From Escherichia coli (lineage in GTDB: Bacteria; Pseudomonadota; Gammaproteobacteria; Enterobacterales; Enterobacteriaceae), in the NCBI RefSeq assembly GCF_003790525.1, contig NZ_CP033635.1: a stretch of 64,000 bases of DNA; one strand, given 5' to 3'. Shown here one piece after another: positions 1 to 28,958 of this stretch. Each line of letters starts with the position of its first letter. The first letter of the stretch is position 1. The position numbers were made by a program, and so were the translations under genes. The notes beneath the pieces are model-generated. The model saw nothing but the letters and a program-made list of their open reading frames with translations. It had not been told where the DNA came from and did not search any database.

Positions 1-1376
1 CATGGATTGATGTGGTAAACCCTGCAACAGAGGCTGTCATTTCCCGCATTCCCGATGGTCAGGCCGAGGATGTCCGTAAGGCAATCGATGCAGCAGAACG
101 TGCACAACCAGAATGGGAAGCGTTGCCTGCTATTGAACGCGCCAGTTGGTTGCGCAAAATCTCCGCCGGGATCCGCAAACGCGCCAGCGAAATCAGTGCG
201 CTGATTGTTGAAGAAGGGGGCAAGATCCAGCAGCTGGCTGAAGTCGAAGTGGCTTTTACTGCGGACTATATCGATTACATGGCGGAGTGGGCACGGCGTT
301 ATGAAGGCGAGATTATTCAAAGCGATCGTCCAGGAGAAAATATTCTTCTGTTTAAACGTGCGCTTGGCGTGACTACCGGCATTCTGCCGTGGAACTTCCC
401 GTTCTTCCTCATTGCCCGCAAAATGGCCCCCGCTCTTTTGACCGGTAATACCATCGTCATTAAACCCAGTGAATTTACGCCAAACAATGCGATTGCATTC
501 GCCAAAATTGTCGATGAAATAGGCCTTCCGCGCGGCGTGTTTAACCTTGTTCTGGGGCGTGGTGAAACCGTTGGGCAAGAACTGGCGGGTAACCCAAAGG
601 TCGCAATGGTCAGTATGACAGGCAGCGTCTCTGCAGGTGAAAAGATTATGGCGACTGCGGCGAAAAACATCACCAAAGTGTGCCTGGAATTGGGGGGTAA
701 AGCACCGGCTATCGTAATGGACGATGCCGATCTTGAACTGGCAGTCAAAGCCATCGTTGATTCACGCGTTATTAATAGTGGGCAAGTGTGTAACTGTGCA
801 GAACGTGTTTATGTACAGAAAGGCATTTATGATCAGTTTGTCAATCGGCTGGGTGAAGCGTTGCAGGCGGTTCAATTTGGTAACCCCGCTGAACGCAACG
901 ACATTGCGATGGGGCCGTTGATTAACGCCGCGGCGCTGGAAAGGGTCGAGCAAAAAGTGGCGCGCGCAGTAGAAGAAGGGGCGAGAGTGGCGTTGGGTGG
1001 CAAAGCGGTAGAGGGGAAAGGATATTATTATCCGCCGACATTGCTGCTGGATGTTCGCCAGGAAATGTCGATTATGCATGAGGAAACCTTTGGCCCGGTT
1101 CTGCCGGTGGTCGCATTTGATACGCTGGAAGAGGCTATCTCAATGGCGAATGATAGTGATTACGGCCTGACCTCATCAATCTATACCCAAAATCTGAACG
1201 TCGCGATGAAAGCCATTAACGGGCTGAAGTTTGGTGAAACTTACATCAACCGTGAAAACTTCGAAGCTATGCAAGGCTTCCACGCCGGATGGCGTAAATC
1301 TGGTATTGGCGGCGCAGATGGTAAACATGGCCTGCATGAATATCTGCAGACCCAGGTGGTTTATTTACAGTCTTAA
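1..1376 (+). CDS. aldA: Aldehyde dehydrogenase A (lactaldehyde/glycolaldehyde dehydrogenase), 3' portion; 5' end lies upstream of the window
   Basis: ORF 12..1376 translation matches AldA C-terminal ~455 aa (catalytic Cys/Glu region, ends VVYLQS); reading frame is open to window start. Confidence 0.95.
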   Translation, partial: WIDVVNPATEAVISRIPDGQAEDVRKAIDAAERAQPEWEALPAIERASWLRKISAGIRKRASEISALIVEEGGKIQQLAEVEVAFTADYIDYMAEWARRYEGEIIQSDRPGENILLFKRALGVTTGILPWNFPFFLIARKMAPALLTGNTIVIKPSEFTPNNAIAFAKIVDEIGLPRGVFNLVLGRGETVGQELAGNPKVAMVSMTGSVSAGEKIMATAAKNITKVCLELGGKAPAIVMDDADLELAVKAIVDSRVINSGQVCNCAERVYVQKGIYDQFVNRLGEALQAVQFGNPAERNDIAMGPLINAAALERVEQKVARAVEEGARVALGGKAVEGKGYYYPPTLLLDVRQEMSIMHEETFGPVLPVVAFDTLEEAISMANDSDYGLTSSIYTQNLNVAMKAINGLKFGETYINRENFEAMQGFHAGWRKSGIGGADGKHGLHEYLQTQVVYLQS

Positions 1377-2606: not shown

Positions 2607-3137
2607 ATGGAAAGTAAATATTCAAGGTTACAAATCGGCATTCACTGGCTGGTCTTTTTGCTGGTTATCGCAGCGTATTGCGCAATGGAGTTTCGTGGTT
2701 TTTTCCCACGTGGCGATAGGCCGCTTATCAACATGATTCATGTTTCCTGTGGCATCTCAATTCTCGTGCTGATGGTTGTTCGTCTTTTGTTAAGGCTTAA
2801 ATACCCAACTCCGCCGATTGTACCTAAACCAAAACCGATGATGACGGGACTGGCGCATTTGGGACATTTGGTGATCTATCTCCTGTTTATTGCGCTGCCA
2901 GTGATTGGTTTGGTGATGATGTATAACCGGGGCAACCCGTGGTCTGCGTTTGGTATGACAATGCCTTATGCAGCAGAGGCCAATTTCGAACGGGTTGATA
3001 GCTTAAAGTGGTGGCATGAGACGCTGGCGAATCTGGGATATTTTGTCATCGGGTTGCACGCTGCGGCTGCACTGGCACACCACTATTTCTGGAAGGACAA
3101 CACACTTCTACGCATGATGCCGCGTAAACGTTCCTGA
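2607..3137 (+). CDS. cybB: Cytochrome b561
   Basis: ORF 2571..3137; internal start MESKYSRLQIGIHW at 2607 matches CybB N-terminus (176 aa, multi-TM haem protein). Confidence 0.92.
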   Translation: MESKYSRLQIGIHWLVFLLVIAAYCAMEFRGFFPRGDRPLINMIHVSCGISILVLMVVRLLLRLKYPTPPIVPKPKPMMTGLAHLGHLVIYLLFIALPVIGLVMMYNRGNPWSAFGMTMPYAAEANFERVDSLKWWHETLANLGYFVIGLHAAAALAHHYFWKDNTLLRMMPRKRS

Positions 3138-3147
3138 AGGATATTTA

Positions 3148-3211
3148 AAGAAAACGCCTGTACTAAAACCGACCCGTGGTACAGGCGAAGAATACGGGTC
3201 TACATCGGAAG
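3148..3211 (-). ncRNA. rydC: RydC small regulatory RNA (Hfq-dependent, pseudoknot)
   Basis: Reverse complement reads CTTCCGATGTAGACCCGTATTCTTCGCCTGTACCACGGGTCGGTTTTAGTACAGGCGTTTTCTT, the 64-nt RydC sequence as I recall it, in the cybB-ydcA intergenic region. Confidence 0.8.
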
Positions 3212-3381
3212 CGCCTATTATATTTATTTGTATGACAAATAAAACCATAATCCTGGTCCATACGTCCATCTGGCTTATCTTTAATCAATTCACCCGATCT
3301 TTGATCTCATCAACGGTATCAAAATAAACCAGCGTATAACGTTCAAATCGAACATAAGATTCGATAAACCATGGAGGTTAT

Positions 3382-3555
3382 ATGAAAAAACTGGCACTTA
3401 TCTTGGTTATAGGAGCGCTTGTTTCCTTTTATGCCGATGCCGGGCGCAAACCCTGTTCTGGTTCGAAAGGGGGGATCTCACACTGTACGGCAGGCGGCAA
3501 ATTTGTCTGTAATGATGGTTCTATTAGTGCATCGAAAAAAACATGCACTAACTGA
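3382..3555 (+). CDS. ydcA: Small secreted protein YdcA (57 aa, signal peptide)
   Basis: ATG at 3382 preceded by GGAGG; translation MKKLALILVIGALVSFYADAGRKPCSGSKGGISHCTAGGKFVCNDGSISASKKTCTN; below the 60-aa ORF-track cutoff. Confidence 0.85.
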   Translation: MKKLALILVIGALVSFYADAGRKPCSGSKGGISHCTAGGKFVCNDGSISASKKTCTN

Positions 3556-3600
3556 AGTGTAAAAGGGGTGCCATGAGAAAATGAATCTGCTAGTCAGATG

Positions 3601-3619
3601 CGCGGGGAAAATCCCCGCG
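3601..3619 (-). terminator. Hairpin downstream of hokB (cgcgggg-aaaa-tccccgcg)
   Basis: GC-rich inverted repeat 8 bp downstream of the hokB stop codon on the minus strand; no clear U-tract. Confidence 0.4.
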
Positions 3620-3626
3620 CTTGCCC

Positions 3627-3822
<196 letters not shown>

Positions 3823-3834
<12 letters not shown>

Positions 3835-3885
3835 TCGTTGGCCTCGGTTGATAGAAATATTGGTCGGGGCCTTCGTCTTTCTGAT
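3823..3885 (+). ncRNA. sokB: SokB antisense RNA (antitoxin of hokB/mokB); boundaries approximate
   Basis: Position antisense to the mokB RBS/start as in hok/sok loci; exact 5'/3' ends not determinable by eye. Confidence 0.35.
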
Positions 3886-4108
3886 TCCCGGTTAGCCTGA
3901 AAACAGAAAGTCTCAGGCACCCGTGAGCATCCTATGTGGTTTCCTTAAGGACGAAAATAATCACCTGACGAAATTGCGTGCTGTTTTCCAGAATTTTTCG
4001 TCATTCGGTTTAGCCAGTTTAATCATTCGTTACTCTCTTCATTCCAATGGCATTATTCTTCTCTGCCATAATTGTTGTAAAAATGTGACGCAAAGAGGTT
4101 TTTGGTCG

Positions 4109-4135
4109 TAAGAAATTACCGTCAAGTGCCGATGA
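4109..4135 (+). promoter_or_regulatory. Putative sigma-28 (FliA) promoter for trg: TAAG-N15-GCCGATGA
   Basis: Close match to flagellar class 3 consensus TAAA-N15-GCCGATAA, about 40 bp upstream of the trg start codon. Confidence 0.45.
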
Positions 4136-4174
4136 CTTTCTATCAGGAGTAAACCTGGAAGAGAGACAACGGTA

Positions 4175-5815
4175 ATGAATACAACTCCCTCACAGCGATT
4201 AGGTTTTTTGCATCACATCAGGCTGGTTCCGTTATTTGCCTGCATTCTTGGCGGTATCTTAGTTCTATTCGCATTAAGTTCTGCTCTGGCTGGCTATTTC
4301 CTCTGGCAGGCCGATCGCGATCAGCGTGATGTTACTGCGGAGATTGAGATTCGGACCGGGTTAGCGAACAGTTCAGATTTTTTGCGTTCAGCCCGGATCA
4401 ATATGATTCAGGCCGGGGCAGCGAGTCGTATTGCGGAAATGGAAGCAATGAAGCGAAATATTGCGCAAGCCGAATCGGAGATTAAACAGTCGCAGCAAGG
4501 TTATCGTGCTTATCAGAATCGACCGGTGAAAACACCTGCTGATGAAGCCCTCGACACTGAATTAAATCAACGCTTCCAGGCTTATATCACGGGTATGCAA
4601 CCGATGTTGAAATATGCCAAAAATGGCATGTTTGAAGCGATTATCAATCATGAAAGTGAGCAGATCCGACCGCTGGATAATGCTTATACCGATATTTTGA
4701 ACAAAGCCGTTAAGATACGTAGCACCAGAGCCAACCAACTGGCGGAACTGGCCCATCAGCGCACCCGCCTGGGTGGGATGTTCATGATTGGCGCGTTTGT
4801 GCTTGCCCTGGTGATGACGCTGATAACATTTATGGTGCTACGTCGGATCGTCATTCGTCCACTGCAAAATGCCGCACAACGGATTGAAAAAATCGCCAGT
4901 GGCGATCTGACGATGAATGATGAACCGGCGGGTCGTAATGAAATCGGTCGCTTAAGTCGTCATTTACAGCAAATGCAGCATTCACTGGGGATGACTGTAG
5001 GGACCGTTCGACAGGGCGCGGAAGAGATTTATCGTGGCACCAGCGAAATTTCAGCTGGCAATGCGGACCTGTCATCTCGCACCGAAGAACAAGCGGCGGC
5101 TATCGAACAAACTGCCGCCAGCATGGAGCAACTCACTGCGACGGTGAAACAGAATGCGGATAACGCGCATCATGCCAGCAAACTGGCGCAGGAGGCTTCT
5201 ATTAAAGCCAGCGATGGCGGGCAGATGGTTTCCGGTGTAGTAAAAACGATGGGCGCTATCTCCACGAGTTCGAAGAAAATTTCTGAGATCACCGCCGTCA
5301 TCAACAGTATTGCTTTCCAGACGAATATTCTGGCACTGAATGCTGCCGTTGAAGCCGCGCGAGCGGGTGAGCAAGGACGTGGATTTGCCGTTGTCGCCAG
5401 CGAAGTACGGACACTCGCAAGCCGCAGCGCTCAGGCGGCGAAAGAGATTGAAGGCTTGATCAGTGAATCAGTCAGGTTAATTGACCTGGGGTCGGATGAG
5501 GTGGCAACGGCAGGGAAAACCATGAGCACTATTGTTGATGCCGTCGCGAGTGTCACACATATCATGCAGGAAATCGCCGCCGCCTCGGATGAACAAAGTA
5601 GAGGCATAACGCAGGTTAGCCAGGCGATTTCTGAAATGGATAAGGTGACGCAACAGAATGCTTCTCTGGTAGAAGAGGCCTCAGCGGCGGCGGTGTCCCT
5701 TGAAGAACAGGCGGCACGATTAACTGAGGCGGTGGACGTATTCCGTCTGAACAAACATTCTGTGTCGGCAGAACCTCGCGGAGCGGGTGAACCAGTTAGT
5801 TTCGCTACGGTGTGA
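4175..5815 (+). CDS. trg: Methyl-accepting chemotaxis protein III (ribose/galactose sensor)
   Basis: 546-aa ORF with two TM segments, HAMP domain and conserved MCP signalling domain ([34 protein letters not shown]). Confidence 0.95.
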
Positions 5816-15168: not shown

Positions 15169-16593
15169 TAATGCCGATCAGTTAAGGATCAGTTGACCGA
15201 TCCAGTGGCTGTGTAAGAATCCGGAAACGCTCACTTGTTTCCGGATTTTTTATGCACATTGGACAGGCTCTTGATCTGGTATCCCGTTACGATTCTCTGC
15301 GTAACCCACTGACTTCTCTGGGGGATTACCTCGACCCCGAACTCATCTCTCGTTGCCTTGCCGAATCAGGTACTGTAACGCTACGCAAGCGCCGTCTTCC
15401 CCTCGAAATGATGGTCTGGTGTATTGTTGGCATGGCGCTTGAGCGTAAAGAACCTCTTCACCAGATTGTGAATCGCCTGGACATCATGCTGCCGGGCAAT
15501 CGCCCCTTCGTTGCCCCCAGTGCCGTTATTCAGGCCCGCCAGCGCCTGGGAAGTGAGGCTGTCCGCCGCGTGTTCACGAAAACAGCGCAGCTCTGGCATA
15601 ACGCCACGCCGCATCCGCACTGGTGCGGCCTGACCCTGCTGGCCATCGATGGTGTGTTCTGGCGCACACCGGATACACCAGAGAACGATGCAGCCTTCCC
15701 CCGCCAGACACATGCCGGGAACCCGGCGCTCTACCCGCAGGTCAAAATGGTCTGCCAGATGGAACTGACCAGCCATCTGCTGACGGCTGCAGCCTTCGGC
15801 ACGATGAAGAACAGCGAAAATGAGCTTGCTGAGCAACTTATAGAACAAACCGGCGATAACACTCTGACGTTAATGGATAAAGGTTATTACTCACTGGGAC
15901 TGTTAAATGCCTGGAGCCTGGCGGGAGAACACCGCCACTGGATGATACCTCTCAGAAAGGGAGCGCAATATGAAGAGATCAGAAAACTGGGTAAAGGCGA
16001 TCATCTGGTGAAGCTGAAAACCAGCCCGCAGGCACGAAAAAAGTGGCCGGGACTGGGAAATGAAGTGACAGCCCGCCTGCTGACCGTGACGCGCAAAGGA
16101 AAAGTCTGCCATCTGCTGACGTCGATGACGGACGCCATGCGCTTCCCCGGAGGAGAAATGGCGGATCTGTACAGTCATCGCTGGGAAATCGAACTGGGAT
16201 ACAGGGAGATAAAACAGACGATGCAACTGAGCAGGCTGACGCTGAGAAGTAAAAAACCGGAGCTTGTGGAGCAAGAGCTGTGGGGTGTCTTACTGGCTTA
16301 TAATCTGGTGAGATATCAGATGATTAAAATGGCAGAACATCTGAAAGGTTACTGGCCGAATCAACTGAGTTTCTCAGAATCATGTGGAATGGTGATGAGA
16401 ATGCTGATGACATTGCAGGGCGCTTCACCGGGACGTATACCGGAGCTGATGCGCGATCTTGCAAGTATGGGACAACTTGTGAAATTACCGACAAGAAGGG
16501 AAAGGGCCTTCCCGAGAGTGGTAAAGGAGAGGCCCTGGAAATACCCCACAGCCCCGAAAAAGAGCCAGTCAGTTGCTTAACTGACTGGCATTA
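15169..16593 (+). mobile_element. IS4 insertion sequence (1425 bp) with 18-bp imperfect terminal inverted repeats
   Basis: Left end TAATGCCGATCAGTTAAG, right end CTTAACTGACTGGCATTA; encodes a 442-aa IS4-family transposase; flanked by 12-bp direct repeats. Confidence 0.9.
15252..16580 (+). CDS. insG: IS4 transposase (DDE; Y-x2-R-x3-E-x6-K signature [16 protein letters not shown])
   Basis: 442-aa ORF beginning [28 protein letters not shown], which I recognise as IS4 InsG. Confidence 0.9.
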
Positions 16594-16605: not shown

Positions 16606-17476
16606 CGGCCAGCCAACGTTGATCTTTATCCGGATGCGCTTCCGGGCTTTGGCAAATAGCCGCGGTGATTGCCGCAATACCGACGGAATAAACGCCGAAA
16701 GGGGAAAAAACCAGTGCCAGCAATCCAGTAAATACAATTAATGGCGAAACAGGAGCCGAATATCCGGCTGCTTTCATTGCTGCGATACCCGGTGCGTTTT
16801 GCGATGCCATCGTCACCAGAAAAAGGGGGAGTGCAACGCTCAGGCTGTGAGCAAACGAAAAATCAGGGCTAATATAAGTGGGGAGAACGGGTTTAAAGAC
16901 AACATCAGTTGTGACAATGTCACCTTGCGCGATAACGATCACGACCCCAATAATCATCGCGGCAATTACCGCATAGCGCGGCGCAACGGCCCTGGTTGCC
17001 AGCCATACCAGCAACATACTGCCACACAACGTAAATTGACCATCCAGGCTCGCAAACGCCTGTAAACCAAAGCGTAATAAAATCCCGGCAAGCATTGCCG
17101 CCGCAAGCGAGTGCGGAATAATGCGCATCAGATGAGCAAAGAGTCCCGTTATGCCGCAGAGGACTATTAACGCGTTGGTGACAATAAAAACGCCGATGGT
17201 TTCGTTAAGTGTTAGTCCCTGCAATCCGGTGACCAACAAAGCCGCGCCAGGCGTTGACCATGCGGTGAGAACAGGTACGCGATACCATAATGTCAGAGCC
17301 AGCGTACTGACGCCCATTGCCAGCCCCAGCGCCGTCATCCAGCCAGAGATTTGTGCAGTGGTGGCTCCGGCGACAATCGCTGCTTGCCAGATTATTGCCG
17401 CTGAACTGGCGTAGCCAATTAATACCGCCAGAAACCCCGCCAGTAGCGTGGGTGGAGGAATAGAAAACAGACGCAT
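16594..17476 (-). pseudogene. ydcO: ydcO (BenE-family transporter) N-terminal portion, truncated by IS4
   Basis: Start MRLFSIPPPTLLAGFLAVLIGYASS with GAGG RBS; the frame runs into the IS4 right end and stops inside it; joining with 14867..15168 after removing one 12-bp repeat restores a ~391-codon gene. Confidence 0.8.
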
Positions 17477-26973: not shown

Positions 26974-28398
26974 ATGCAACATAAGTTACTGATTAACGGA
27001 GAACTGGTTAGCGGCGAAGGGGAAAAACAGCCTGTCTATAATCCGGCAACGGGGGACGTTTTACTGGAGATTGCCGAGGCATCCGCAGAACAGGTGGATG
27101 CTGCTGTTCGCGCGGCAGATGCAGCATTTGCCGAATGGGGGCAAACCACGCCAAAAGCGCGTGCGGAATGCCTGCTGAAACTGGCGGATGTTATCGAAGA
27201 AAATGGTCAGGTTTTTGCCGAACTGGAATCCCGTAATTGTGGCAAACCGCTGCATAGTGCGTTCAATGATGAAATTCCGGCGATTGTCGATGTTTTTCGC
27301 TTTTTCGCGGGTGCGGCGCGCTGTCTGAATGGTCTGGCGGCAGGTGAATATCTTGAAGGTCATACTTCGATGATCCGTCGCGATCCGTTGGGGGTTGTGG
27401 CTTCTATCGCACCGTGGAATTATCCGCTGATGATGGCAGCGTGGAAACTGGCTCCGGCGCTGGCGGCAGGGAACTGCGTAGTGCTTAAACCATCAGAAAT
27501 TACCCCGCTGACCGCGTTGAAGTTGGCTGAGCTGGCGAAAGATATCTTCCCGGCAGGCGTGATTAACGTACTGTTTGGCAGAGGCAAAACGGTGGGCGAT
27601 CCGCTGACCGGACATCCCAAAGTGCGGATGGTGTCGTTGACGGGCTCTATCGCCACCGGCGAGCACATCATCAGCCATACCGCGCCGTCCATTAAGCGTA
27701 CTCATATGGAACTTGGTGGTAAAGCGCCAGTGATTGTTTTTGATGATGCGGATATTGAAGCAGTGGTCGAAGGTGTACGTACTTTTGGCTATTACAATGC
27801 TGGACAGGATTGTACTGCGGCTTGTCGGATCTACGCGCAAAAAGGCATTTACGATACGCTGGTGGAAAAACTCGGTGCTGCGGTGGCAACGTTAAAATCT
27901 GGTGCACCGGATGACGACTCTACGGAGCTTGGACCTTTAAGCTCGCTGGCGCATCTCGAACGCGTCAGCAAGGCGGTAGAAGAGGCGAAAGCGACAGGGC
28001 ACATCAAAGTGATCACTGGCGGTGAAAAGCGCAAGGGTAATGGCTATTACTATGCGCCGACGCTGCTGGCTGGCGCATTACAGGACGATGCCATCGTGCA
28101 AAAAGAGGTATTTGGTCCGGTAGTGAGTGTTACGCTCTTCGACAACGAAGAACAGGTGGTGAACTGGGCAAATGACAGCCAGTACGGACTTGCATCCTCG
28201 GTATGGACGAAAGATGTGGGCAGGGCGCATCGCGTCAGCGCGCGGCTGCAATATGGTTGTACCTGGGTCAATACCCATTTCATGCTGGTAAGTGAAATGC
28301 CGCACGGTGGGCAGAAACTTTCTGGTTACGGCAAGGATATGTCACTTTATGGGCTGGAGGATTACACCGTCGTCCGCCACGTCATGGTTAAACATTAA
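26974..28398 (+). CDS. patD: Gamma-aminobutyraldehyde dehydrogenase
   Basis: 474-aa aldehyde dehydrogenase (ELGGKAP, catalytic Cys in GQDCTAA context). Confidence 0.92.
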
Positions 28399-28438
28399 GG
28401 ATAATATTGCAGATCGTAATAGTATGAGATGATCTTGC

Positions 28439-28471
28439 GTACTGTCAGAGCACTGATTTCTCTGACAGTAC
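28439..28471. terminator. Perfect hairpin (gtactgtcagag-N9-ctctgacagtac) between convergent patD and yncL
   Basis: 12-bp perfect inverted repeat; no U-tract on either strand, so terminator function is uncertain. Confidence 0.35.
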
Positions 28472-28494
28472 GTGCTGCGTGCAAAATCACTACA

Positions 28495-28590
28495 TCAAAT
28501 AAACCAGCCAAATCTCATAGAGATAAGAGTAAATAAACCAACAGCAGCAAAGACATTTATCAGTACTACAGTTCTACTGGAAACATTCAT
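28495..28590 (-). CDS. yncL: Small membrane protein YncL (31 aa)
   Basis: Minus-strand frame MNVSSRTVVLINVFAAVGLFTLISMRFGWFI*, single TM; below ORF-track cutoff. Confidence 0.75.
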   Translation of the reverse strand: MNVSSRTVVLINVFAAVGLFTLISMRFGWFI

Positions 28591-28784
28591 TTTTGCCACC
28601 TTTTATCATTGCCCCTATGTGTATAGTACGGGTTCAGAAAATCCGCAATAATACTCATTCTGAAGATGGATAAGGGCAAGTTGCTGTTAGATGATTTTTT
28701 CTCAAACGGGTGAAAAAACTTGATGCACGTCAAAAAATGACGCATATTTGCGCGCGTTTTATTCATCTGGCTGGACGCCCGTAC

Positions 28785-28958
28785 ATGTCTCTCTATCAAC
28801 ACATGCTTGTTTTTTATGCGGTTATGGCAGCAATCGCATTTCTTATCACCTGGTTTCTTTCTCACGATAAGAAACGCATCCGTTTCTTAAGCGCCTTTCT
28901 GGTGGGGGCAACATGGCCGATGAGTTTCCCGGTGGCGCTGTTGTTTTCACTGTTTTAA
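28785..28958 (+). CDS. ortT: Orphan toxin OrtT (YdcX; 57-aa membrane peptide)
   Basis: Internal start of ORF 28710..28958: MSLYQHMLVFYAVMAAIAFLITWFLSHDKKRIRFLSAFLVGATWPMSFPVALLFSLF. Confidence 0.8.
   Translation: MSLYQHMLVFYAVMAAIAFLITWFLSHDKKRIRFLSAFLVGATWPMSFPVALLFSLF

Follow-up and report, generated by a model that had tools for sequence, protein, structure and literature searches.

A conserved stem-loop without a U-tract in the 3' untranslated region of Escherichia coli yncL, which probably defines the 3' end of the mature mRNA

In this study we analysed a 64,000-nucleotide stretch of Escherichia coli DNA (hereafter, the window), in which the spacer between the patD and yncL genes contains a perfect inverted repeat. 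We assign this palindrome to yncL, as a conserved RNA stem-loop in its 3' untranslated region (3' UTR) located directly upstream of a mapped RNA 3' end. It is probable that transcription of yncL passes through the hairpin and is terminated by Rho further downstream, and that exonucleases then trim the RNA back to the stem; the hairpin would thus define, and probably also stabilise, the mature 3' end. The element is an ordinary example of the known U-less 3' hairpins, and its 3' end has already been published under another label. The features of the region are collected in Table 1.

Table 1. Features of the patD-yncL region (positions refer to the window)
Feature	Position	Strand	Description and basis
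patD (gamma-aminobutyraldehyde dehydrogenase), convergent neighbour	26974..28398	+	39 nt separate its stop codon from the stem
Read-through zone antisense to the patD 3' end, Rho stop region	28149..28434	-	approximate borders; mildly C-rich, G-poor; bicyclomycin data
Mature yncL RNA 3' end	28435	-	3 nt past the stem (...GUACG-CAA-3'); K-12 Term-seq
yncL 3' UTR, 60 nt	28435..28494	-	22-nt spacer, hairpin and 3-nt tail; from the stop codon and the Term-seq end
Stem-loop in the yncL 3' UTR	28438..28472	-	13-bp perfect stem 28438-28450 (CGTACTGTCAGAG) / 28460-28472 (CTCTGACAGTACG), 9-nt loop 28451-28459; folding and homologue covariation
yncL CDS	28495..28590	-	31 aa, ATG 28590-28588, stop 28497-28495; small stress-response membrane protein; Pfam PF28073:YncL on orthologues

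An initial reading of the nucleotide sequence, made without any database search (the sequence-only reading), had noted the palindrome gtactgtcagag-N9-ctctgacagtac at positions 28439-28471. It is present exactly there, and the perfect repeat extends one pair further than had been noticed (Table 1). Seven of the 13 base pairs of the stem are G-C. Folded alone, the hairpin reaches -21.6 kcal/mol as minus-strand RNA (z = -5.2) and -22.5 kcal/mol as plus-strand RNA (z = -6.2), and none of 200 shuffled sequences folded equally well; the strong hairpin that had been predicted was therefore confirmed by its folding energy of about -21 kcal/mol. It is the sole strong structure in the spacer separating the two genes. 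The sequence-only reading had also pointed to a missing T-run, and we found none beside the stem on either strand. On the minus strand the stem is followed by the 10 nt CAAGAUCAUC, with two U residues among them, and on the plus strand by GUGCUGCGUG; the sequence preceding the stem is GCACGCAGCA, and neither strand has an A-tract or a U-tract. A terminator scan was silent at the hairpin and revealed no terminator-like site on either strand of the patD-yncL spacer, and hence no terminator of patD's own between the two genes in the window strain; the sites that it did report (28816-28839, plus strand; 28757-28740, minus strand) lie beyond yncL.

The repeat sequence by itself is just mildly improbable: dinucleotide shuffling of the 64-kb window yields a perfect 13-bp repeat with a loop of 3-40 nt in 4% of cases (on average 0.06 repeats per shuffle). 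We consider the palindrome a real feature because it is conserved with compensatory changes and because an RNA 3' end has been mapped beside it. Apart from one chance match (11/13) at position 17286, the window contains no other copy of the hairpin within 2 mismatches.

The palindrome had correctly been placed between patD and yncL, two converging genes separated by a 96-bp spacer, with neither strand nor owner assigned; our analysis identifies the minus strand and yncL, rather than patD. On this strand the hairpin begins 22 nt past the yncL stop codon, and the whole 3' UTR folds with an energy of -24.3 kcal/mol. To follow the element through related bacteria, yncL loci were gathered with PatD and OrtT as anchors. 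In E. coli, in three further lineages of Escherichia, in E. albertii, and in five Citrobacter and two Salmonella lineages, the hairpin follows the yncL stop codon at a distance of 21-32 nt. It is kept beside patD (E. coli, Salmonella, C. amalonaticus), but also where the C. freundii group has a gene for an AraC-type regulator and E. albertii an invasin-like gene, and in the about 22% of E. coli genomes in which the neighbour is a 1.3-kb insertion with a CatB-related acetyltransferase gene. Where patD occurs without adjacent yncL, a different hairpin of its own is located directly past its stop codon. Since the hairpin accompanies yncL whatever the neighbour, and patD alone has a different one, we conclude that the element belongs to yncL. 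The loci of Enterobacter and related bacteria recovered by the PatD scan carry neither yncL nor the hairpin, and in Intestinirhabdus yncL is present, followed by only weak structure.

Comparison of the homologous loci showed that it is the pairing that has been conserved. In an alignment of 12 distinct homologues, in which the helix was scored over 16 pairs, 85% of the cells are paired, compared with 34-49% when the partners are slid by 1-3 columns. Changes on both sides were observed in 10 of the 16 pairs, the observed values were reached by none of 500 shuffles, and RNAalifold independently predicts the same helix. The arms drift from ACUGUCAGAG through CUGGCAGAGAG to UUGGCGGGGAGG, and no constraint is seen on the loop. 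Of 5426 E. coli genomes, 5411 contain the 51-nt hairpin region, and the sole common variant allele (about 20%) differs in the loop only. This allele (window 28451-28453, plus-strand CAC to AGT) gives the stem an additional A-U pair and leaves a loop of 7 nt; it is carried by genomes that have the acetyltransferase island as well as by genomes that lack it.

A strand test based on counts of G-U versus A-C combinations (9 vs 9) favours neither strand, and the strand was assigned by synteny together with the Term-seq data described below. Taking into account these equal counts and the perfect palindrome, the hairpin may also play a role in the patD mRNA.

Two different insertions were found at one point of this region. 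In approximately 1,170 of 5,415 E. coli genomes, the 1.3-kb insertion, carrying the CatB-related O-acetyltransferase gene, is located exactly at the patD stop codon. In E. coli GN02270 it occupies positions 2674-4005 of the locus, and the corresponding junction in the window is at about 28389-28410; the near-repeats AAACATTAAG and AAATATTAAGGATAAT lie on its two sides, and patD receives from it a terminator-like hairpin (TAGTGGCTG...CGGCCACTATCGTTTT). The same point is occupied in the C. freundii group by a different insertion (encoding an AraC-type regulator and an MFS transporter), and a remnant of the patD 3' end, ACATATTAAGGATAAT, has been retained beside yncL. The presence of two different insertions at the same place suggests that the patD stop codon is a recurrent insertion site. 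A further rearrangement is seen in E. coli LAM_HS (locus 4100-5000), where IS1A follows directly after patD, and yncL and its hairpin are missing.

On the other side of yncL, a small hairpin with a T-run was identified upstream of ortT (window 28720-28769, plus strand; 28740-28757). Its sequence is ACGCATATTTGCGCGCGT TTTATT, and at the same place there are an "orphan" Term-seq 3' end (MG1655 1517357, plus strand, corresponding to about position 28753 of the window) and a sub-threshold Rfam match to the Salmonella RNA STnc320 (16.4 bits, E = 4.9). This structure could be a 5'-UTR attenuator or a short RNA encoded in the divergent yncL-ortT spacer.

Experimental support for the assignment to yncL comes from published Term-seq data for E. 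coli K-12 MG1655, which contain a minus-strand 3' end at position 1517039 with the flank ...CTCTGACAGTACGCAA (Adams et al. 2021, PMC7815308, supplementary file 1). We transferred this coordinate by means of the MG1655 record (patD ends at 1517002, yncL occupies 1517099-1517194), which places the end at position 28435 of the window. K-12 is a different strain from that of the window, and the two sequences are identical from the yncL stop codon to 14 nt past the 3' end. The end is listed in all three growth conditions, with 75,265 reads in LB at OD 0.4 (exponential phase) and 536,300 reads in LB at OD 2.0 (PMC7815308), i.e. its signal is about 7-fold stronger in stationary phase. This is in agreement with a strong RpoS-holoenzyme SELEX peak in the yncL promoter region, between yncL and ydcX, and with the sigma-S dependence of the Salmonella yncL orthologue, whose transcript was originally listed as an sRNA, STnc1110.

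Adams et al. labelled this end "antisense patD"; their "primary" class comprises ends at most 50 bp from a gene, and the end at 1517039 is 60 nt past the yncL stop codon (PMC7815308). Our results reassign it to the yncL mRNA and so complete the transcript model of a small stress-induced membrane protein, a result of little importance beyond annotation. The sequence-only reading had proposed 3'-end mapping as a check, and had named an absence of 3' ends at this site together with a lack of conservation as evidence against its proposal; the data revealed a strong minus-strand 3' end and a conserved palindrome.

The same study reports a minus-strand Rho termination region with its best position at MG1655 1516753, i.e. 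position 28149 of the window (Rho score 16.6, p = 5e-21; PMC7815308, supplementary file 2). The coverage upstream and downstream of it is 220 and 9, respectively, without bicyclomycin, and 106 and 72 with the inhibitor, as determined in 800-nt windows and therefore at coarse resolution (PMC7815308). The best position is located 286 nt downstream of the 3' end, inside antisense patD; windows of 800 nt fix neither the start of the read-through RNA at yncL nor the point of release. Measured in windows of 78 nt, the C/G ratio past the hairpin is 1.2-2.0; for the strand background the median is 1.05 and the 90th percentile 1.64, and the ratio past the hairpin stays below the 95th percentile. In E. 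coli the first 60 nt past the stem have a C:G ratio of 13:7, the ratio rises to as much as 22:7 in Citrobacter, and this segment is C-rich and G-poor in all of the U-less lineages. The lack of a U-tract, the dominant 3' end 3 nt past the stem, the Rho-dependent read-through and the compensatory substitutions across genera all support an RNA stability element, one of the two functions that the sequence-only reading had offered for the palindrome.

We therefore propose the following explanation. RNA polymerase would transcribe yncL and continue past the hairpin, where intrinsic release is unlikely, because there is no U-tract and the hybrid is not weakened. Rho would load on the untranslated RNA just past the hairpin, in which C prevails over G, and would terminate transcription within about 300 nt, antisense to the patD 3' end. 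The resulting heterogeneous tails would then be shortened by 3'-to-5' exonucleases as far as the base of the 13-bp stem, which would block these enzymes, so that the mRNA would be stabilised and would end precisely 3 nt past the stem. From the data at hand we infer the trimming and the stabilising effect, as well as an origin of the read-through RNA at the yncL promoter.

A more elaborate version of this proposal, to which we give little credence, is that the Rho-dependent end of yncL is conditional, with read-through antisense into patD when Rho is limiting, as in an excludon-type switch. If this were true, the very strongly sigma-S-driven yncL promoter would, in stationary phase or under stress, couple the small membrane protein to putrescine catabolism, and Salmonella, with an acquired U-tract, would have lost the yncL-patD coupling.

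It is also conceivable, although unlikely, that the hairpin is a U-less, non-canonical intrinsic terminator, maybe bidirectional for patD and yncL and possibly aided by head-on polymerase collisions, in which case the mapped end would be the site of release after slight trimming. The hairpin is indeed the sole stable one in the spacer and is as stable on one strand as on the other, the window strain offers patD no other terminator, ExcludonFinder lists patD-yncL as a convergent overlapping pair, and the Salmonella homologue, described below, resembles a genuine intrinsic terminator. Against this stand the two U residues in the 10 nt past the stem and the lack of an A-tract or U-tract on either strand, the position of the 3' end (3 nt from the stem, not 7-9 nt) and the strong increase in downstream coverage caused by bicyclomycin. 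Moreover, between MG1655 1516900 and 1517199 the published list has no 3' end on the plus strand (PMC7815308), and patD, when apart from yncL, has its own hairpin right after the stop codon.

In the Salmonella enterica homologue (locus 1130-1205, minus strand) the stem is extended (-30.4 kcal/mol) and is followed by CUAUUUUUU, so that a run of six U residues lies past the stem; the C:G ratio downstream is about 1:1, with no bias towards C. Judged by its sequence, this homologue looks like a genuine intrinsic terminator, which a simple terminator scan does not call because of an internal loop. The difference between Escherichia and Citrobacter on the one hand and Salmonella on the other may therefore represent an evolutionary switch between Rho-dependent and intrinsic 3'-end formation in one orthologous transcript, and the pair of U-less and U6 hairpins can be used for studying the evolution of the mode of termination.

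Endonucleolytic processing of a longer RNA, with the hairpin serving as a recognition or boundary element, seems improbable. RNase III might attack the hairpin itself, its E. coli-specific extension or a patD/yncL sense-antisense duplex; the other candidate, RNase E, would cleave just downstream. The E. coli stem can be extended across a bulge by 9 further pairs (outer helix 28430-28438 with 28482-28490), and a convergent overlap with patD has been reported. However, the outer helix is paired in 51% of cases across the homologues, shows no convincing covariation and has most of its 3' strand past the mapped end, and we therefore rejected it as a functional part of the element and regard it as incidental. 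Typical RNase III substrates are longer than the 13-bp stem, which also argues against this enzyme. The abundance of yncL mRNA is altered in RNase E or RNase III mutants (Stead et al. 2011), but that report, in the part accessible to us, gives no detail on which of the nucleases affects yncL.

A role at the DNA level (as an operator for a dimeric DNA-binding protein, a cruciform, or a recombination site left by a mobile element), to which the perfect palindrome, the LexA-like half-sites TACTGT/ACAGTA in its arms and the nearby insertions in some strains (the acetyltransferase island, IS1) might point, is scarcely credible, since the arms diverge between genera with their complementarity kept (ACTGTCAGAG, CTGGCAGAGAG, TTGGCGGGGAGG), which indicates a nucleic-acid structure rather than a protein recognition sequence and leaves the protein-binding palindrome, the other function offered by the sequence-only reading, unsupported, and since the element is present in a single copy per genome and the island is joined not at the hairpin but about 40 bp from it, at the patD stop codon. 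A LexA box was rejected specifically, as CTGT (28442-28445) and ACAG (28465-28468) are separated by N19 instead of the required N8.

Several known systems resemble the yncL hairpin in part. Like REP/BIME elements, which can stabilise the upstream mRNA, it is an extragenic palindrome at the 3' end of a gene; unlike them, it is a single-copy sequence without the REP consensus. A REP or another dispersed repeat was rejected, since each of 5411 E. coli genomes has the hairpin at a single locus, an apparent second place being a self-match on the opposite strand (41.9 bits, E of about 0.35). A search of Rfam 15 over the hairpin gave no family (the best hit, SNORD41, with 16.8 bits, E = 4.9 and a gathering score of 41, is a chance match), and no Rfam family was found in the orthologous loci of Salmonella, Citrobacter and E. 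albertii.

The other close inverted repeats of the window (15215-15250 and 63629-63656) are classic bidirectional terminators. They share with the yncL element a symmetric hairpin in a convergent spacer, but each is bordered by an A-run and, on the opposite side, a T-run (AAGAATCCGGAAAC/GTTTCCGGATTTTT and AAAATGGCGCTT/AAGCGCCATTTT, respectively), whereas the yncL hairpin has neither. With intrinsic terminators in general it has in common a G+C-containing stem-loop of typical size and energy, placed soon after a stop codon. It differs from them in the lack of a U-tract (about 5 or more U in 8 nt); besides, transcripts released at intrinsic terminators end 7-9 nt past the stem, within the U-tract, and independently of Rho, whereas the yncL RNA ends 3 nt past the stem and the read-through is Rho-sensitive.

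The closest likeness is to the 3' ends described by Dar and Sorek (2018). As in that class, a stable stem-loop immediately precedes a sharply defined steady-state 3' end, there is neither a U-rich tail nor an upstream A-tract, and read-through downstream depends on bicyclomycin (published data, 800-nt windows); an excess of C over G downstream may also be shared, the yncL bias being mild (C/G 1.2-2.0, strand median 1.05). Dar and Sorek (2018) explain such E. coli 3' ends by a protection against PNPase and RNase II, rut sites being located just past the structure. By analogy, the yncL hairpin is probably a member of this class, and its stem would act in the same way, as a block to exonucleases.
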